Shown here: positions 5,393 to 12,412 of the stretch, one piece after another | Layout of the letters: every line of letters begins with the position of its first letter | How positions within the stretch are numbered: the stretch's first letter is position 1 | DNA from: Candidatus Latescibacterota bacterium | GTDB lineage: Bacteria > Latescibacterota > UBA2968 | Length of the DNA stretch: 64,000 nt | Direction of reading: 5' to 3' | NCBI GenBank assembly: GCA_965198115.1 | Contig: OZ240241.1 | Span: 4,800,001-4,864,000 of the forward strand | The notes under the pieces: generated by a model | What the model was told of the DNA's origin: nothing | The model's database searches: none | Seen by the model: the letters and a program-made list of their open reading frames with translations, nothing else | Translations under genes and position numbers: made by a program

Positions 5393-7371
5393 TAAACCTT
5401 GGTAAGCCCCCGGCTCTGCCGGGGAGACTCCCAGAGTTTGACAGTTCCAGAAATATGTAAGAGCCTCCCTTGCCGTGGACCGCTCAAAGCACACGGAAGG
5501 AAGGCTCTCGAGCTCAGGTCAATAGGTGTGTAAAAGAAATCAGGCGGCCATCTTCCCGGCTTCGACCTGCGGTCCGGTTGAGTGTTTCTGATCGTAGACT
5601 TGTTGTAGCAAGTGTGGCGCGGTGAGTTTCCTGAATCGGCTCTCTGCGACCTTGAGCGTACGCCAGATGAGAGCCGTGGCGTTCCTGACTTTCTTGAATC
5701 GCCTGGCGGCGTTTGTGCGAAGCCGAACGGAAGCAAAGGGGCTCTCGACGACGTTCGTGGTTCTCAGGTGTTTCCAGTGTTCCTTCGGGAAGTCGTAGAA
5801 CGTGACCATCCGATCCCAGTTTCTTTCGAGCGTCTCCACGGCGGCAGGGAACTGTGAGCGATACCGTGCGGCAAAGCGTTTCCGGAGCTTCTCGGCCTCC
5901 TTTTTCGTGCCGGCATAGGGGATCTGGACGAGCAGTGCGCGGGCTTCAGCCTGTGCACGCTTGGCGACCTTGTCGAGCACGTTGAGGATCTTGTGGTTCC
6001 AGCACCGTTGTTGCCGGCTCTCTGGCCAGACCTGATCAACGGCCGCCCAGATGCCCATATTCCCGTCCGCGGCGATCAGGACAGGATGTTCGAGCCCGCG
6101 ATCCCGGAGATCCCGGAGCACCGTGAGCCAGGATTCTGTAGACTCTCGATAACCGGGTTCTATCGCCAGGATCTCCTTGCTGCCGTCGCTCATCGCGCCG
6201 ATCACGACCAGCAGACACGCCTTCTCGCGCTCGAGCCCGGCTTTGACGTAGATGCCATCAGCCCAGGCGTAGACCAGTTCGCGATTATCCAGACGCCTTT
6301 CTTTCCAGTCCTGGAAGTCGACCTCCCACTTCCCTCGAAGACGAGCGATCGAGGTCGGCGAAAGCGGCGCGCCATCACCGAGCAGCGCACGCAAAGACAA
6401 CTCGAAGTCGCCCTGGGAGAGACCGTGGAGATAAAGGTCGGGAAGCAGATCTCCAATGGCCCTGGTTCTCCGGGCGAACAGGGGGAGGATGCGGCTTTCA
6501 AACCGCTCTTCCAGACCACGAACCCGGGGACGCCGGACCTTGATCGTTCCGCAGCTCGTCGAGAGACGCCGGGGCTTGCCGTAGCCGTTCCTGTAGCCCC
6601 TGGAGCTATCGACCTCGGCTCGGCGCTCATACCACGACCGGCCCAAGAACGCGGTCGCCTCCTCCTCCAGAATGGACTGGAACCGGCCCTGGATCTCTTC
6701 ACGGATCCAATCGTCAACCGTCTCCCACGTCGGCATGGACTTCAATGGGGCTCTATGCGTATGTTCCTTCACGGCGATCCTCCTTCCCAACCGGGCCTCT
6801 CACCCGGTTTTGTGTGAATCAACTATCTCACGGGAAGGGTAGGGTCGCCCTTTCTCTTTTTCCACACCTTTTGATTATAGCTCGTATGGGAGTGCAAGTA
6901 TGACGTTGTTTGGGTTCGGAAGTATCGTAGAAAAGTGTTGTATGGTGAAATTCGTCGCTATCTGGGCGAGGTGATTCGGGATCTGGCCGCACAGAAGGAA
7001 TGCCGTGTGGAAGAGGGTCACCTGCGATCCGACCATGTGCACACGCTGATTTCGATCCCGCCGAAGCACTCAGTAGCTCAGACGGTAGGGTTCATCAAAG
7101 GAAAGAGTGCGATTCACATTGCTCGGAACTATCTGGGACGCAGGTCGAACTTCACCGGGCAGCATTTCTGGGCAAGAGGCTACTGGGTCTCCACCGTTGG
7201 CAAGGATGAACAGACGGTTCGGGAGTATATCCAGAACCAGGAGCGGGAGGACCGGCGTCTCGACCAGCTCAACATTTTCAGGTAATCGCCACCTTTAGGT
7301 GGCGCTTGGTTTCCAACCGCTTTGAGCGGTTCACAAGTTTTCAAGCCTCCGGCTTTGCCGGAGGTCATGAC
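5393..7371 (+). mobile_element. tnpA: IS200/IS605-family (tnpA only) copy 1, disrupted by IS256
   Basis: Y1 HUH motif DHVH and FWARGY. Subterminal hairpins CCCCGGC..GCCGGGG and CCTCCGGC..GCCGGAGG. Matches 30012-30648 but the start codon region is deleted. Confidence 0.92.
5510..6883 (-). mobile_element. IS256-family element copy 1 (transposase 5540-6790)
   Basis: YRNGY, WADG, QRCWNHK, LRTTNVVES motifs. Imperfect IRs GAGCTCAGGTCAATAGGTGTG / GAGCTATAATCAAAAGGTGTG. Confidence 0.95.
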
Positions 7372-8801
7372 TCTCCCAAAGTTCTGTTTGGGGGTCGAAG
7401 TGGCTGATGCCGTTGTCAGTGGCGACCCAGACCGTGCCGTCCGCGTCGGGAAGGACCTCCCGCGAGGTTTCGCTGGCCAGACCATCACGCATCCTGTAGG
7501 TTCGCCAAGCTGCCTGACCTGAACCGGCATACGACCTGTATCGCGAGACACCCAGGCCGCCAGCACCCACGTACGTGCACCACAGATCCGAACCGACTAC
7601 CTGAAATCCCCTTGCCTTATTGCCCGGAAATCCTTCCTCGTAGCTCGACCAGGCGGTGCCGGTGAACCAGCTCATGCCGTTGAGCGTGCCGGCCCAGATA
7701 GTGCCGTCGGATGACTGACCGAAGCCGTAGATCCGATTGTGGAGGAGGCCATCATCCGTGGTGTAATGGGTCCAGGGAGTCTGCCCTGAGTCTGCCGAAG
7801 GGTCGAAATGCATCACACCATCGCCGACCAGGCCCTTTCCAGCCCGGGCCAGACATTGGTGCCGAACCAGATGTCTCCGCTGGCTACAACGAAAGGAGAA
7901 TGGAGTCGCTCGGCATCAACGCCAGGGTCCAGAACCTGCCAGGACTGTCCATCGTAACGGCTGACCGCTGCCTTTCCGTCCCTGCTGCCGGCCACCCAGA
8001 AGGTGCTGTCAGTGGGGTGATAAGTCAGACCCAAACTGCCTCTGATAGCACTACTTGAGCCAATCGACAGGCGCTGGAGACCCATGTCAGATGCTGTGTG
8101 GGTCTCCCACCGACCTGCCACGTGCCTACACCATCCTCTTGATTGAGCCCCGAGGAACCACACTGAGCCGTCGTCGGTGGCTGTCATAGCCCCGTAGGGG
8201 GGGTCGAGCAGTCCTTCCGTGGGTCCGTAGAGCACCCAGTTCTTGCCGTCGTAGCGAACTGGACCGTCGTCGGTCACGAACCATGTGGAGCCGTCCGGTG
8301 CGCGATGACCACCCCCAAGCGCACGACCTACATCAAATCGCGTGCGGAAGTGCTCCCGAACCCGAATCCGGTATGCGTGAGGGCGTTGGTAGGGAGATAG
8401 CCACAACGAGCCGCTGCGGCTTAAGCGGGCGTAGAGGGCCCCGCTTGGCTTTAGGGCAGAATCCACAACCCGCCAGCCCTCGCCAGTAAAGGTCACAATG
8501 TCGCCGTTCGTGCTGACCGACAAGATTCGTCTGTCCGGCGTCTCCCAGACGGAGAGGTGCTTCACATCGGCGAGACCATCCGCAGACCGGTATACGGTCC
8601 ATCCATCATCCTTATACCGAACGATGGCCGGCACGTCCCAGGATGTGGCCCAAACCGACCCATCTGACGTTTGAACGACCTCGACGTAGACGAGACCAGG
8701 AAGGCCCTGCTCCGGACCGAACACCGACCATTCGCCGCCACGGTAGCGGAGCAGTCCCTGCCCCTTCGAAGGGGAATTATAACTAATCGTAACCAAAACG
8801 C

Positions 8802-8830
8802 TTGACTTTCGTATTCCCTGTGGTTACTAT
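8802..8830 (+). promoter_or_regulatory. Sigma70-like promoter of the IS1595 transposase
   Basis: TTGACT-17 nt-TACTAT, 36 nt upstream of ATG 8867. Confidence 0.6.
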
Positions 8831-8866
8831 TAGTATATAAATCAACCACAAATCAAGGGGGATACG

Positions 8867-9799
8867 ATGGCCAAGTCAGGACCAGGCAAGCACTTCAGGA
8901 AGGGACTTTCGCTGTTGGAGGTCATGCAGATGTTCCCCGACAATACATCGGCAGAGGAATGGATTGCACAATGCCGTTGGGACGGCGAACCCGCTTGTCC
9001 GCATTGCGGGGGTGTCAACGTTCAAACCGGCGCGAAGCATCCGAGCCAGCCCTACCGGTGCCGCGAGTGTCGGAATTTCTTCAGTGTAAAGACGGGCACC
9101 GCGATGGCGGGGAGCAACCTGGGTTATCAGGTGTGGGCGATCGCCGTCTACCTGCTGGCTACGGGCCTAAAGGGCCAAGCGTCCATGAAGCTGCACCGCG
9201 ATCTTGATATTTCACAGAAAGCCGCATGGTTTCTGGCGCACCGGCTACGGGAGACGTGGGATGATCGCAAAGCGCAGTTCAACGGGCCGGTGGAAGCCGA
9301 TGAGTGCTACATCGGTGGGGTTGAAAAGAACAAGCATATGAACATGCGGGCCAATCTGGGCCGGGGTCCGAGCGGGAAGACGGCCATCGTCGGAATGAAG
9401 GATCGGGCAACCGGCAAGGTGGCCGCCCGTTTGGTTGAATCGACCGACAGACTGACGCTGCAAGGCTTTGTGCAGAACAATGTTGTGGAGGGTGCGAAGG
9501 TCTACACGGACGAATCGGCGGGCTACAAAGGGCTGGCGAATCACGAGACAGTCAAGCACTCTGTGTCCGAGTATGTGAATGGCCAAGCGCACACGAACGG
9601 CGTGGAGAGTTTCTGGGCACTCCTCAAGCGTGGCTATCACGGCACCTACCATCGTATGAGCCCCAAGCACTTACAGCGCTACGTCAACGAGTTCAGCGGG
9701 CGTCACAACATCCGACTGCTCGATACCGTCCACCAGATGCGGGCTATCATCCGTGGTCTCGAAGGCAAGCGGCTTCGTTACCGGGAGCTTACGGCGTGA
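8867..9799 (+). CDS. IS1595-family transposase (zinc ribbon + DDE)
   Basis: CPHCG..CREC, VEADE, VYTDE, HTNGVESFW..LKRG, KHLQRYVNEF. Confidence 0.97.
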   Translation: MAKSGPGKHFRKGLSLLEVMQMFPDNTSAEEWIAQCRWDGEPACPHCGGVNVQTGAKHPSQPYRCRECRNFFSVKTGTAMAGSNLGYQVWAIAVYLLATGLKGQASMKLHRDLDISQKAAWFLAHRLRETWDDRKAQFNGPVEADECYIGGVEKNKHMNMRANLGRGPSGKTAIVGMKDRATGKVAARLVESTDRLTLQGFVQNNVVEGAKVYTDESAGYKGLANHETVKHSVSEYVNGQAHTNGVESFWALLKRGYHGTYHRMSPKHLQRYVNEFSGRHNIRLLDTVHQMRAIIRGLEGKRLRYRELTA

Positions 9800-9843
9800 G
9801 CGACCCCAAAGCGCACGTTCGACACCTTTATGGAGGTCAGAAA

Positions 9844-10356
9844 ATGAAGCCAATGACTCAACTTATTCATGGAATTGAGGAAAAAGACAAACTCTTTTTC
9901 GGCTTATCGGACACACTCGACGTCAAAGCAAGCGTTTCATTGATTCTGATCACGTTTCTGTCTGCACAAACCGCTTATTTTCTTAACCTCGACACTGCAC
10001 ACGCAGTTGTATTATTTTCCCAAACTCTTTCTGCAATAGTTCTTAGTGTGGGCGGAGTTCTGGCACTGAGTATTCTCTGGCCACGCTACCATGAGACCGA
10101 AAGCATAGAGAAAATGGATCTCTGGTATCAAGAACTAAAAAAGTGTTTTGAAGGTGAAGCGGAGGCCGACCAAAAAACTAATGAACTGTTTGAACGTGGA
10201 AGGTTCGATGGTCTGAAGAAACAAGTAAGCCATAACCGCTCCATCGTTAGACGGAAAGCAAGCCTCGCCGAGTGGTGCTATCGATGTATAGTGCTCTCTG
10301 TTGTGTTAAATATCGCGTGCTTTCTCTTACACTTCGCTAACCGAAACCTTTCTTGA
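9844..10356 (+). CDS. Three-TM membrane protein, Pycsar-effector (DUF5706)-like, IS1595 cargo
   Basis: GGAGG RBS. LDVKAS+TM1, TM2 ending LWPR, NRSIVRRK before TM3. Lower GC than host genes. Confidence 0.6.
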   Translation: MKPMTQLIHGIEEKDKLFFGLSDTLDVKASVSLILITFLSAQTAYFLNLDTAHAVVLFSQTLSAIVLSVGGVLALSILWPRYHETESIEKMDLWYQELKKCFEGEAEADQKTNELFERGRFDGLKKQVSHNRSIVRRKASLAEWCYRCIVLSVVLNIACFLLHFANRNLS

Positions 10357-10468
10357 CTTGTTCTGGCGGCGGAGGCGTCGGCGATGGCGTGGGCGCAGGC
10401 GCAGGCGCAGGCGCAGGCGCAGGCGGTGGTTCATTCTGTTTTTCGTCGTTGTTTTTTTCGTCAGCCAT
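10337..10468 (-). CDS. 43-aa proline-rich micro-protein, convergent with and overlapping the TM gene
   Basis: MADEKNNDEKQNEPPPAPAPAPAPAPTPSPTPPPPEQVKKGFG*. Below the ORF-track cutoff. Confidence 0.55.
   Translation of the reverse strand: MADEKNNDEKQNEPPPAPAPAPAPAPTPSPTPPPPEQVKKGFG
10394..10423. repeat. (CGCAGG)5 hexanucleotide tandem repeat encoding (PA)5
   Basis: Directly visible. Confidence 0.9.
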
Positions 10469-10559
10469 TTGAGTTCTTTCTGTGGAGGTTAATTATGGAC
10501 GATTCATCTACTGTCAAGTCTGACAGGGAAGATTTATGGGAATGCGCGTAGATAAGGGC

Positions 10560-10772
10560 TTAAGGGGATTGGCGTCGGCTTCGATATTTTCCAGTCTTTA
10601 ACTGAAATGTGTTACGTGATACATTTTGGATGTTCTTTCCCTTCGCGCGGGCACTACCGATTCGACCGCGCACTTGGTTTGTCGACAATCCCATTTCTTT
10701 TGCCAGATCCTTGACGTGTGCACCATTTGGATATTTCGCGAATAACTCGATAAGGTCGTGGTAACTCTGCAT
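10560..10772 (-). CDS. Small winged-HTH protein (70 aa), IS1595 cargo
   Basis: HVKDLAKEMGLSTNQVRGRI HTH pattern. GAGG RBS. Confidence 0.65.
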   Translation of the reverse strand: MQSYHDLIELFAKYPNGAHVKDLAKEMGLSTNQVRGRIGSARAKGKNIQNVSRNTFQLKTGKYRSRRQSP

Positions 10773-10848
10773 GCATACCTCTATCGCTACAAGACTTTCA
10801 ATATGGGGTTGCTTTGCATAAACAGCCCGGCAGGATGGCAGGCTGCCG

Positions 10849-10872
10849 ATATGATCCCATATGAGATCATAT
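10849..10872. promoter_or_regulatory. Palindrome ATATGATC-N8-GATCATAT, candidate operator
   Basis: Perfect 8-bp inverted repeat upstream of the divergent HTH gene. Confidence 0.4.
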
Positions 10873-10896
10873 TCTGGACCCTAAGAAAGAAAGCCA

Positions 10897-11001
10897 ATGC
10901 CCGATAGGATACTGGACACCCCAGAAGATATCATGCGGGCGCTTGTGACTACACCGCTCAAAGCAAAGGCCGAAAACAAGAAACTCGGTGTGCGGAGGTG
11001 A
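10897..11001 (+). pseudogene. Degenerate copy of the IS1595 terminal micro-ORF
   Basis: MPDRILDTPEDIMRALVTTP aligns with MPEPIPDTPENIMKAFIKTP at 11478-11651. Confidence 0.7.
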
Positions 11002-11004
11002 AAA

Positions 11005-11376
11005 ATGAGTAACGACGAACAATATAAAGTCATTGGGCTCTTGGTGATTCAACACCAAGAGCAGCAACGCCATGTGGTCTGCGTCGAGGAAAAGCGGAAG
11101 AAGCTGGTCTCCGCTTTGCGGAAAACACAGGAGCTGTTAGAGGGGAGCGATTCTATCATGATGACCAGGGCAGACAACGATTCCCTGACCATCGATCAGC
11201 CATCCGGTGGATTGGTGGTAATAAGCCCTGATCCCCCCACAACGCATATAGAATATCCAAGCTTTGCGGAGTTGCAGAAATTCATCGCCGATTACAAGGA
11301 AGCGATCAACGCATTCAATGAAGTCGAGAGCCAATTGAAAAAGATACACCCCGGCTTATTCAGCAACTCGGTATGA
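11005..11376 (+). CDS. Hypothetical coiled-coil protein, IS1595 cargo
   Basis: 123-aa ORF with GGAGG RBS. No recognisable family. Confidence 0.6.
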   Translation: MSNDEQYKVIGLLVIQHQEQQRHVVCVEEKRKKLVSALRKTQELLEGSDSIMMTRADNDSLTIDQPSGGLVVISPDPPTTHIEYPSFAELQKFIADYKEAINAFNEVESQLKKIHPGLFSNSV

Positions 11377-11477
11377 TCGCATTATGTTTTCCCCCAGTTG
11401 GGTTTGTTCATAATCTTCATTATAAAACGGGCAAAACGTAAAATCCAACTAATTGTGCGATGCGAAGGAGTAGAACC

Positions 11478-11651
11478 ATGAATGACGAAAAGCAGAAGCG
11501 CCCGCGCGGCCGACCGCCGAAGCATCTGATGCCGGAGCCGATCCCCGACACCCCCGAAAACATCATGAAAGCGTTCATCAAGACGCCGCCACGGAAACGG
11601 GAAGATTGGAAGTTTGTGCAGGAACGTGAGGAAAAGAAGCGGGCCACTTAG
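11478..11651 (+). CDS. 57-aa AT-hook micro-protein at the IS1595 right end
   Basis: AAGGAG RBS. KRPRGRPPK AT-hook followed by PIPDTPENI. Stop about 10 nt before the IR. Confidence 0.65.
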   Translation: MNDEKQKRPRGRPPKHLMPEPIPDTPENIMKAFIKTPPRKREDWKFVQEREEKKRAT

Positions 11652-12280
11652 CAGAAAGGGTTTGGTTACGATTGGTTATAATTCCCCTTCGAAGCAATCC
11701 ACAGAGTCCCGTCGGCCTCCTCGGTCAAAGACATCACATCAAGCGAATCCGTCGGGGTCTCGACAACAGACCATTTGCGGCCGTCGAATCGGCTCAAGCC
11801 TCCGGACCCCCCCAGAGCGAGCGTGAATCCTGCCCACAGACCCCTATCTCCCGATGGTTTGAGACTTCGCCACCAGAAGGTATCGCTCGCAAGACCGTCC
11901 TTCACAGTGTAGGTCCGGACGCTGTCGGCCAGCATCCGAGTGATGCCTCCGAGTGTACCGAACCACAGTGCGCCGTCTGGCGTCTGGGTAACTGTCCTTA
12001 CGTTATCCGAACCGAGACCATCCTCGGTTGTGTAGGTCTGGAAGGAGATTCCGTCGTAACGCAGGGCTCCAATGCCGGTCGCGAACCACATATTGCCTTC
12101 GCGGTCTTCAAAAACGTCGTGAACCGGACCTGGCAGATTGAACTCGGTCCATCGCCAGGGCTCTGAATACGGCTCGGGCTGAGGCGCGACGGTGAGCGTG
12201 TCCACGGCGTAGACCGGGACTGTCAACAGCAAGCAGAGGATGGTGGCATAAGTGCGCATCGCAACCCAAGATGCGACCCG

Positions 12281-12412
12281 CCCTTCGCTCGGACAAGCGC
12301 GAGCTACGGCGGGCAGGCGGCGGGGAACGGCGGGCAAGCCCTCCTCCGCTCGATAGGGCACAAGCTTCCACCTCCGCGTGAACGCTACGGCGGACAGGTC
12401 GGGCGGGCAGGC
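12281..12412. repeat. Cluster of REP-like (GCTAC)GGCGG(G/A)CA(A/G)G repeats
   Basis: GCTACGGCGGGCAGG, ACGGCGGGCAAG, GCTACGGCGGACAGG and GGCGGGCAGG within 130 bp. Confidence 0.5.

Follow-up and report, generated by a model that had tools for sequence, protein, structure and literature searches.

A PycTM-like membrane protein paired with a convergent proline-rich peptide or an HU tail: a candidate peptide-gated module

The membrane effectors of the Pycsar and Pucsar systems, PycTM and PucTM, have been placed in the pJV1-spdB3 three-transmembrane (3TM) family (bioRxiv 10.64898/2026.08.12.744502), whose name derives from a plasmid spread gene (PMC4447253). EcPucTM is described there as forming a hexameric pore, by which it causes abortive infection, and no cGMP-bound PucTM structure was obtained (bioRxiv 10.64898/2026.08.12.744502). 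Ligands of cyclase-linked PycTM proteins are reported to activate them (PMC11224242). In Panoptes, a ligand is reported to keep the membrane effector off, and ligand loss frees its toxicity (PMC12657218).

Here we analyse a PycTM-like gene and the short convergent frame that overlaps its end, both located in the window—i.e. the whole 64,000-nt stretch of DNA under study. The kind of effector is already known; what appears to be new is the pairing of a PycTM-like protein with a convergent proline-rich peptide or an HU tail. The pairing with an antisense peptide is undescribed in the literature searched (mostly open-access texts without supplements), and an earlier mention is possible.

The pair in the window and the element that carries it

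The membrane gene runs on the forward strand from an ATG at 9844 to a TGA at 10356, behind a GGAGGT ribosome site (9832–9837), and encodes 170 aa. The initial annotation had described a three-TM protein with a D-x-KA / LWPR / N..I..RK pattern, and all of these residues are located (D26-V-K28-A29, L78-W-P-R81, and N131..I134..R137-K138), together with three hydrophobic segments that appear as hydropathy peaks. The AlphaFold model (pLDDT 95) has four helices, at residues 4–47, 54–78, 88–101, and 108–169. On the opposite strand lies a micro-ORF of 43 aa (10468–10337), which reads acidic-(PA)5-Pro-KKGFG and overlaps the membrane gene by exactly 20 nt, as first annotated. Its conserved C-terminal motif (peptide residues 29–43; 10340–10384, minus strand) is the predicted TM-binding part. 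A putative control gene this short, and with such an overlap, would escape routine annotation.

The (PA)5 linker is encoded by five GGCGCA hexamers (10392–10421), a repeat for which a role had been proposed. This part of the initial annotation is not supported, as the repeat is not conserved: it is absent even from a 79%-identical homolog (L002), where a mixed-codon polyproline run takes its place, the linker ranges in length from 32 to 64 aa, and the predicted interface does not include the repeat. Contigs of the read data break at the GGCGCA repeat. The window micro-ORF has no GGAG-type ribosome site, and its closest homolog has one. The membrane protein carries Q127 and H83 at positions where the family has R in 87 of 100 and Y in 77 of 100 members; because of these residues and the weak ribosome site of the peptide, the window copy of the pair may be decaying. 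Run X1 holds another copy of the TM gene (window region 9842–10343), ∼88% identical and at higher depth.

Both genes are cargo of an intact IS1595-family element of 2,915 bp (8772–11686), which the initial annotation had overlooked even as it called the module mobile, a claim that the element bears out. Specifically, it has 26-bp terminal inverted repeats (left, 8772–8797, plus strand, starting GGGAATTAT; right, 11661–11686, minus strand), an 8-bp target-site duplication (CTTCGAAG at 8764–8771 and again CTTCGAAG at 11687–11694), and a 310-aa DDE_Tnp_IS1595 transposase (8867–9799, plus strand; PF12762 E 7e-38, PF12760), whose stop codon lies 45 nt before the membrane gene on the same strand. 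We take the left terminal repeat, and the element, to be ISNwi1-like. The remaining passengers are an HTH-like ORF of 70 aa upstream of the peptide on its strand (10560–10772, minus; Pfam HTH matches all below cut-off), a 123-aa ORF without a family match (11005–11376, plus), a 63-aa ORF (11460–11651, plus) with an AT-hook-like stretch below cut-off and paralogs at other IS1595 ends in the genome, and a 34-aa ORF (10897–11001, plus) that resembles the 63-aa passenger by eye. Such small DTPE-x-I ORFs (10897–11001 and 11460–11651 in the window) turn up repeatedly in IS1595 elements of this genome. A related IS1595 element (C1:5668300-5671408) carries a 259-aa ORF and a gene that, by eye, resembles DNA methylases. 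A shorter element of 656 bp (C1:4968194-4968849) has similar ends, lacks a long ORF, and is possibly non-autonomous.

The element splits a Reg_prop (two-component regulator propeller) gene into 7813–8763 and 11695–12361 (minus strand). Its open frame is 541 aa at the empty site and 231 aa at present, and for this reason the insertion looks recent on sequence grounds. Another Reg_prop piece is found at 7331–7816, and an insertion cluster lies nearby, with a Mutator-family (IS256-type) transposase (5540–6790, minus) and an IS200-like transposase (6935–7285, plus).

By profile comparison, the 170-aa protein is a distant homolog of Pycsar PycTM, the kinship that had been suggested from its residue pattern. 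Its PF18967 score (17.2–17.6 bits) stays below the 27.2-bit gathering cut-off, and just 8 of 100 family members match PF18967 at E ≤ 0.01. The PADLOC PycTM profile matches the protein at E 2.5e-6, its top ESM Atlas matches are PycTM clusters (0.95–0.96), and hhalign aligns the family profile with a profile of cyclase-linked PycTM at 96.6% and E 5e-10 over 154 columns, i.e. full-length homology. The family profile holds 100 sequences (3 first matches and 97 of the remaining listed matches), and the reference profile holds 69 (of 120 listed matches), built from the L115 PycTM that adjoins a PycC cyclase. The anchors D-x-K, P, and N..I..K are common to both, whereas the cytosolic segment after TM2 reads GG-SLIYFREIA in cyclase-linked PycTM and Y..E..P....W in the new family, to which D23 is also particular (93 of 100 members). 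An HMM search returned 202 clusters at E ≤ 0.001, and the 150 listed ones measure 75–215 aa, with no large fusions among them. Foldseek and wide VIA-align fold searches returned generic helical bundles, which give no information either way.

The pairing across homologous loci

From 80 homologous loci we retained 53 non-redundant ones: 16 were excluded because their 3' end was truncated or disrupted or their flank was shorter than 100 nt, and 11 because they duplicated other loci at 90% identity. In 48 of the 53, a proline-rich antisense frame ends between -35 and +15 nt from the TM stop, though two of these loose matches, at L025 and L079, seem to be spurious. The pattern P-x-x-P-x-[ND]-x-x-hydrophobic-[KR]-K-[GS], used as a strict motif, sits at the antisense stop in 38 of 53 loci; of the control ends, none of 6,771 from long ORFs of this genome and none of 311 from other ORFs at those loci has it. 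Its positions are P(-10), P(-7), N/D(-5), hydrophobic(-2), K/R(-1), K(0), G/S, G/A, and the stop. A position matrix identifies the motif in 45 of 53 loci at p<0.01 (null: 2,500 genome ORF ends), a count made up of 38 leave-one-out matches, with kin kept in the training set, and 7 from outside that set. The initial annotation had proposed a search for antisense proline-rich ORFs downstream of homologs, and such ORFs are indeed conserved there: the pairing of TM gene and micro-ORF is far above chance. Among the 38 strict-motif loci, an ATG lies 32–64 codons upstream in 35 and a ribosome site of at least 4 nt is present in 24. Two loci found later (L100 and L101) both have a convergent proline-rich ORF.

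Eight of the 53 loci fail the matrix. Two of these (L071 and L083) carry the motif elsewhere, as described below; by eye, the motif is divergent in L054 and L078; L066 seems to be a mis-assembly; and the doubtful L020 and L025 have short Lys-rich antisense ORFs only. The eighth is L079, whose contig begins 65 nt upstream of its TM gene, too close for an HU tail to be judged. Variants of the arrangement also occur. In L014 and L032, a second tandem antisense proline-rich ORF with a variant motif lies 130–280 nt past the TM stop, possibly a spare or orphan peptide. One distant TM relative (L011:1339-2157) has a same-strand proline-rich ORF overlapping its 3' end, and another (L010:1249-2181) has a polar C-terminal extension with its own Met.

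The initial annotation saw no cyclase nearby, and a Pfam scan of the six main ORFs of the element indeed finds none. Likewise, no class III cyclase (PycC/PucC) is adjacent to homologs among 131 flanking ORFs (up to two per side at 51 loci, several of which have none). Because this test for an adjacent cyclase failed, the module is not a Pycsar system. The membrane protein could still be an orphan Pycsar effector that responds to a cyclic nucleotide made in trans, with the peptide as a chaperone or passenger. Its PycTM homology agrees with such a role, as do the only two matches of a PycC query in this genome, which are weak (E 6e-5 and 2.5e-4) and lie ∼1 and 3 Mb away. However, four further genomes that carry the family, each incomplete or without a stated completeness, give no match to the same query, and the GG-SLIYFREIA segment of cyclase-linked PycTM is replaced. 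Classical PF18967 loci also do without the peptide, as none of six that exceed the Pfam cut-off, including one true PycC-linked Pycsar, passes the motif matrix. As such, we regard an orphan effector as very unlikely. Other kinds of stand-alone PycTM-like genes do exist by sequence: five PF18967 genes above cut-off (L112, L113, L114, L116, and L117) have no peptide and, by eye, no evident adjacent cyclase.

Transposases (of IS1595 and other families), phage genes, methylases, AbiV, RES, TIR, and many housekeeping genes occur beside the homologs, with no recurrent third gene beside the pair among the 131 flanking ORFs. Many loci lie amid housekeeping genes, outside defence islands, a placement that counts against the reading preferred below. 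Titled records with the family are mostly from Acidobacteriota, and two loci are from Candidatus Latescibacterota. The family is rare: at least 4 of 168 genomes from the phylum to which the window belongs carry it, as do at least 4 of 401 in another sample. A peptide-first DNA pattern had no match in 401 Acidobacteriota genomes, and scans of viral sequences gave 4, 0, 5, and 6 matches, with a convergent PycTM-like gene only in L106. This viral contig (L106:737-2139) has two tandem PycTM-like genes with an 18-codon startless motif remnant between them. No plasmid match was found for family member P0030.

The genome of the window also holds a second TM family. A second IS1595 element (C1:6206600-6209369, L004), with an 8-bp duplication, has as cargo a PycTM-like gene distinct from that of the window, together with a convergent proline-rich ORF whose first codons are those of the window micro-ORF. 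Of 12 loci examined for this family, 4 are split, and 4 of the other 8 have a convergent proline-rich ORF with another ending; further members occur in this genome at C1:644369, 1184997, and 7653791. The second family is tied to PycTM through the ESM Atlas alone (0.94, with recognition below the mark of that tool), and hhalign gives no alignment to A2. That a second, distant PycTM-like family has its own convergent proline-rich peptides hints that such a design may reach further, and that many PF18967-like genes without a cyclase may have partner peptides that annotation has missed.

Peptide, HU tail, and proposed gating

What is selected in the micro-ORF was left open by the initial annotation, which had invoked either the peptide or its antisense transcript as the controlling agent. 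At the motif of the 38 loci, Lys is encoded by AAA 22 times and by AAG 16 times, all four Pro codons occur, and the stops are TAG in 17, TAA in 17, and TGA in 4. Across 48 peptides, single-base codon differences are synonymous in 2,818 cases and non-synonymous in 912, related sequences in this count not being independent. Such free variation at the third codon position shows that it is the peptide that is under selection, and the motif is, on these codon patterns, maintained as protein. A conserved RNA fold was rejected, as folding energy is no lower than in codon-resampled controls (mean z -0.19 and -0.27). The peptide half of the earlier proposal is supported by the motif on HU tails and by a predicted complex, and the antisense-RNA half gains nothing from folding.

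A reading in which no peptide acts, the antisense frame being a by-product of a terminator, an antisense RNA, or an overlap constraint, draws on the geometry of the gene ends. These interlock at a few recurring offsets (-3 in 14, -16 in 13, and -19 in 4 of 38 loci) scattered across the tree, TTC/GTC codons fall on the TM stop in interlocked ends, and we found no terminator-like site between the two genes of the window. We give this reading hardly any credence, given the synonymous variation, the start codons, the three stop types, the control-level folding energy, and the reappearance of the motif on the sense strand as a protein tail. The overlap of the two mRNAs could nevertheless add control.

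That tail belongs to HU. In a subgroup of the family without the micro-ORF, the TM gene is immediately preceded, on its own strand, by a copy of HU (PF00216) that has the motif at its C-terminus. This is the case in all five loci with a visible upstream region (L071, L083, L053, L089, and L081). Three of these (L053, L081, and L089) had been excluded from the 53 and were placed in the subgroup by sequence similarity instead of by the tree. The tail of L081 consists of three tandem motif copies. The HU-tail copies are ∼80% identical to ordinary HU, and all nine HU genes of five control genomes lack the tail. Among the best 120 HU homologs, taken without their genomic context, 13 have strict tail matches and the majority end in APKK. 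On sequence evidence, the motif is relocated from micro-ORF to HU tail.

Complex prediction with four TM copies and two peptides (31 residues) scored 0.62, 0.60, and 0.61, and three controls scored 0.00; these controls are unrelated proteins, and a generic fit of Pro on Trp could give the same score. Among solved pairs, 116 of 157 attain the score mark, compared with 2 of 215 among mismatched pairs; these counts apply only approximately here, owing to our own alignments and stoichiometry. The runs agree in at least 87% of contacts, with a partner pLDDT of at least 63, in an assembly of four TM copies where homology points to a hexamer. Peptide residues 29–43 make the predicted contacts, with P32 and P33 on W94, E36–K40 along residues 82–87, and the C-terminal end near D23/D26/K28; a neighbouring subunit is also touched. 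The motif is thus predicted by the model to dock on a conserved cytosolic face of the membrane protein. Predicted interface columns are somewhat more conserved than others (2.15 vs 1.71 bits, p=0.049), and the site is the segment in which the family departs from cyclase-linked PycTM.

Two other ideas about the peptide were dropped. A role as supplier of a missing beta-strand is unsupported, as the monomer model of cyclase-linked PycTM is also strandless, and the KKGG/KGFG end is hardly a conjugation tag, as the 131 neighbouring ORFs include no E1/E2, ligase, or recurrent protease.

We favour a peptide-gated, toxin-antitoxin-like defence module in which the peptide would hold a putative pore shut and its loss would open it, and put the probability of this reading at roughly 45%. 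The PycTM-type protein, by homology with EcPucTM, would form a ring-shaped and probably hexameric pore, and the C-terminal peptide motif, not a cyclic nucleotide, would keep it closed, as the predicted docking suggests. The peptide may be short-lived, such that constant synthesis would be needed. Translation of polyproline generally depends on EF-P, and basic C-termini ending in Ala/Gly may resemble protease degrons. When a phage shuts off host expression, or when the element is lost, the peptide would disappear, the pore would be freed, and the cell would arrest. In the HU-tail subgroup, the motif on a spare host HU may make it a lure for phage factors directed against HU, and phage inhibition of HU is reported for SPO1 Gp46 (PMC8892312).

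The opposite sign, with the peptide as an activator that replaces cCMP/cUMP, deserves a hearing. The pore would be silent alone and opened by an induced peptide, or by an HU-tail fusion released from a degraded chromosome. Such an activator fits the same pairing and predicted binding, and docking is predicted at the segment that sets the family apart from cyclase-linked PycTM, whose ligands are reported to activate (PMC11224242). The genes are convergent with separate promoters, and tail-to-tail genes of this kind suit an inducible activator as well as an antitoxin. In the HU-tail loci, however, the partner gene lies directly upstream on the TM strand, where a constitutive activator would be co-made with the pore, and in three IS elements the peptide gene ends a run of same-strand element genes. 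We prefer the antitoxin sign because of this upstream, same-strand HU-tail gene, which is the layout of an antitoxin, and because of the Panoptes precedent; an activator seems doubtful to us.

Alternatively, the two proteins may bind and yet serve the mobile element, not phage defence, through addiction after excision or through an SpdB3-like membrane role as in Streptomyces plasmid spreading. The TM gene follows a same-strand IS1595 transposase in the window and in L002, L027, and L044, and the plasmid origin of the pJV1-spdB3 name points the same way (PMC4447253). Against this, most homologous loci have no transposase among their neighbours, some lie amid phage or defence genes, and addiction alone hardly explains a motif borne on HU. 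A role confined to the element is, in our judgement, unlikely.

To return to the gated antitoxin, a tentative extension, possible and short of probable, is that a branch of Pycsar pores exchanged its nucleotide messenger for an encoded, portable peptide key. The free form would report on host translation, and the HU-grafted form would be an integrated decoy, such that phage attack on the nucleoid opens the pore. If true, the gated module would account for the working of Pycsar-type pores that have no cyclase, and a peptide-gated class would join nucleotide-signalling immunity. Through the 15-residue motif, its predicted site, and the natural HU-tail variant, the gating of PycTM-family pores could be approached directly.

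Comparison with described systems

As an IS1595 element with passenger genes, the carrier has the usual DDE_Tnp_IS1595 transposase, 26-bp repeats, 8-bp duplication, and non-transposition cargo, whereas this particular cargo was not found in the literature searched.

With type I toxin-antitoxin loci, which have overlapping 3' ends and a membrane-active toxin, the pair shares its tail-to-tail geometry. In contrast, the opposite strand is here selected as protein, the putative toxin is 170 aa and not a small peptide, and coding signatures without excess folding take the place of a structured non-coding antisense RNA.

Pycsar PycC–PycTM and Pucsar PucC–PucTM (PF18967/DUF5706) have a homologous 3TM protein, alignable over 154 columns, with the same anchors and the same predicted helical layout. 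The differences are that there is no cyclase here, that the cytosolic segment after TM2 is changed, that D23 is present, and that the partner is a tail-to-tail peptide gene or an HU tail. Panoptes OptS–OptE likewise consists of two genes with a ligand-repressed membrane effector, which is the logic of our preferred reading (PMC12657218). Its ligand is, however, an enzyme-made cyclic dinucleotide, and we found no such enzyme here.

Type II toxin-antitoxin systems offer neutralization by a short, disordered protein tail. Their antitoxins usually join a DNA-binding domain to a C-terminal binding tail and are encoded upstream of the toxin, and the HU-tail form has this composition and order. Here, however, the putative toxin would be a pore with three TM segments, most of the gene pairs converge, and the putative antitoxin is a polyproline peptide of 32–64 aa; the same-strand operon typical of type II is absent from the window and most homologs, and present only in the HU-tail subgroup. 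Overall, the sequences and these analogies suggest an effector like that of Pycsar and, on the preferred reading, a logic like that of Panoptes or of type II toxin-antitoxin systems.
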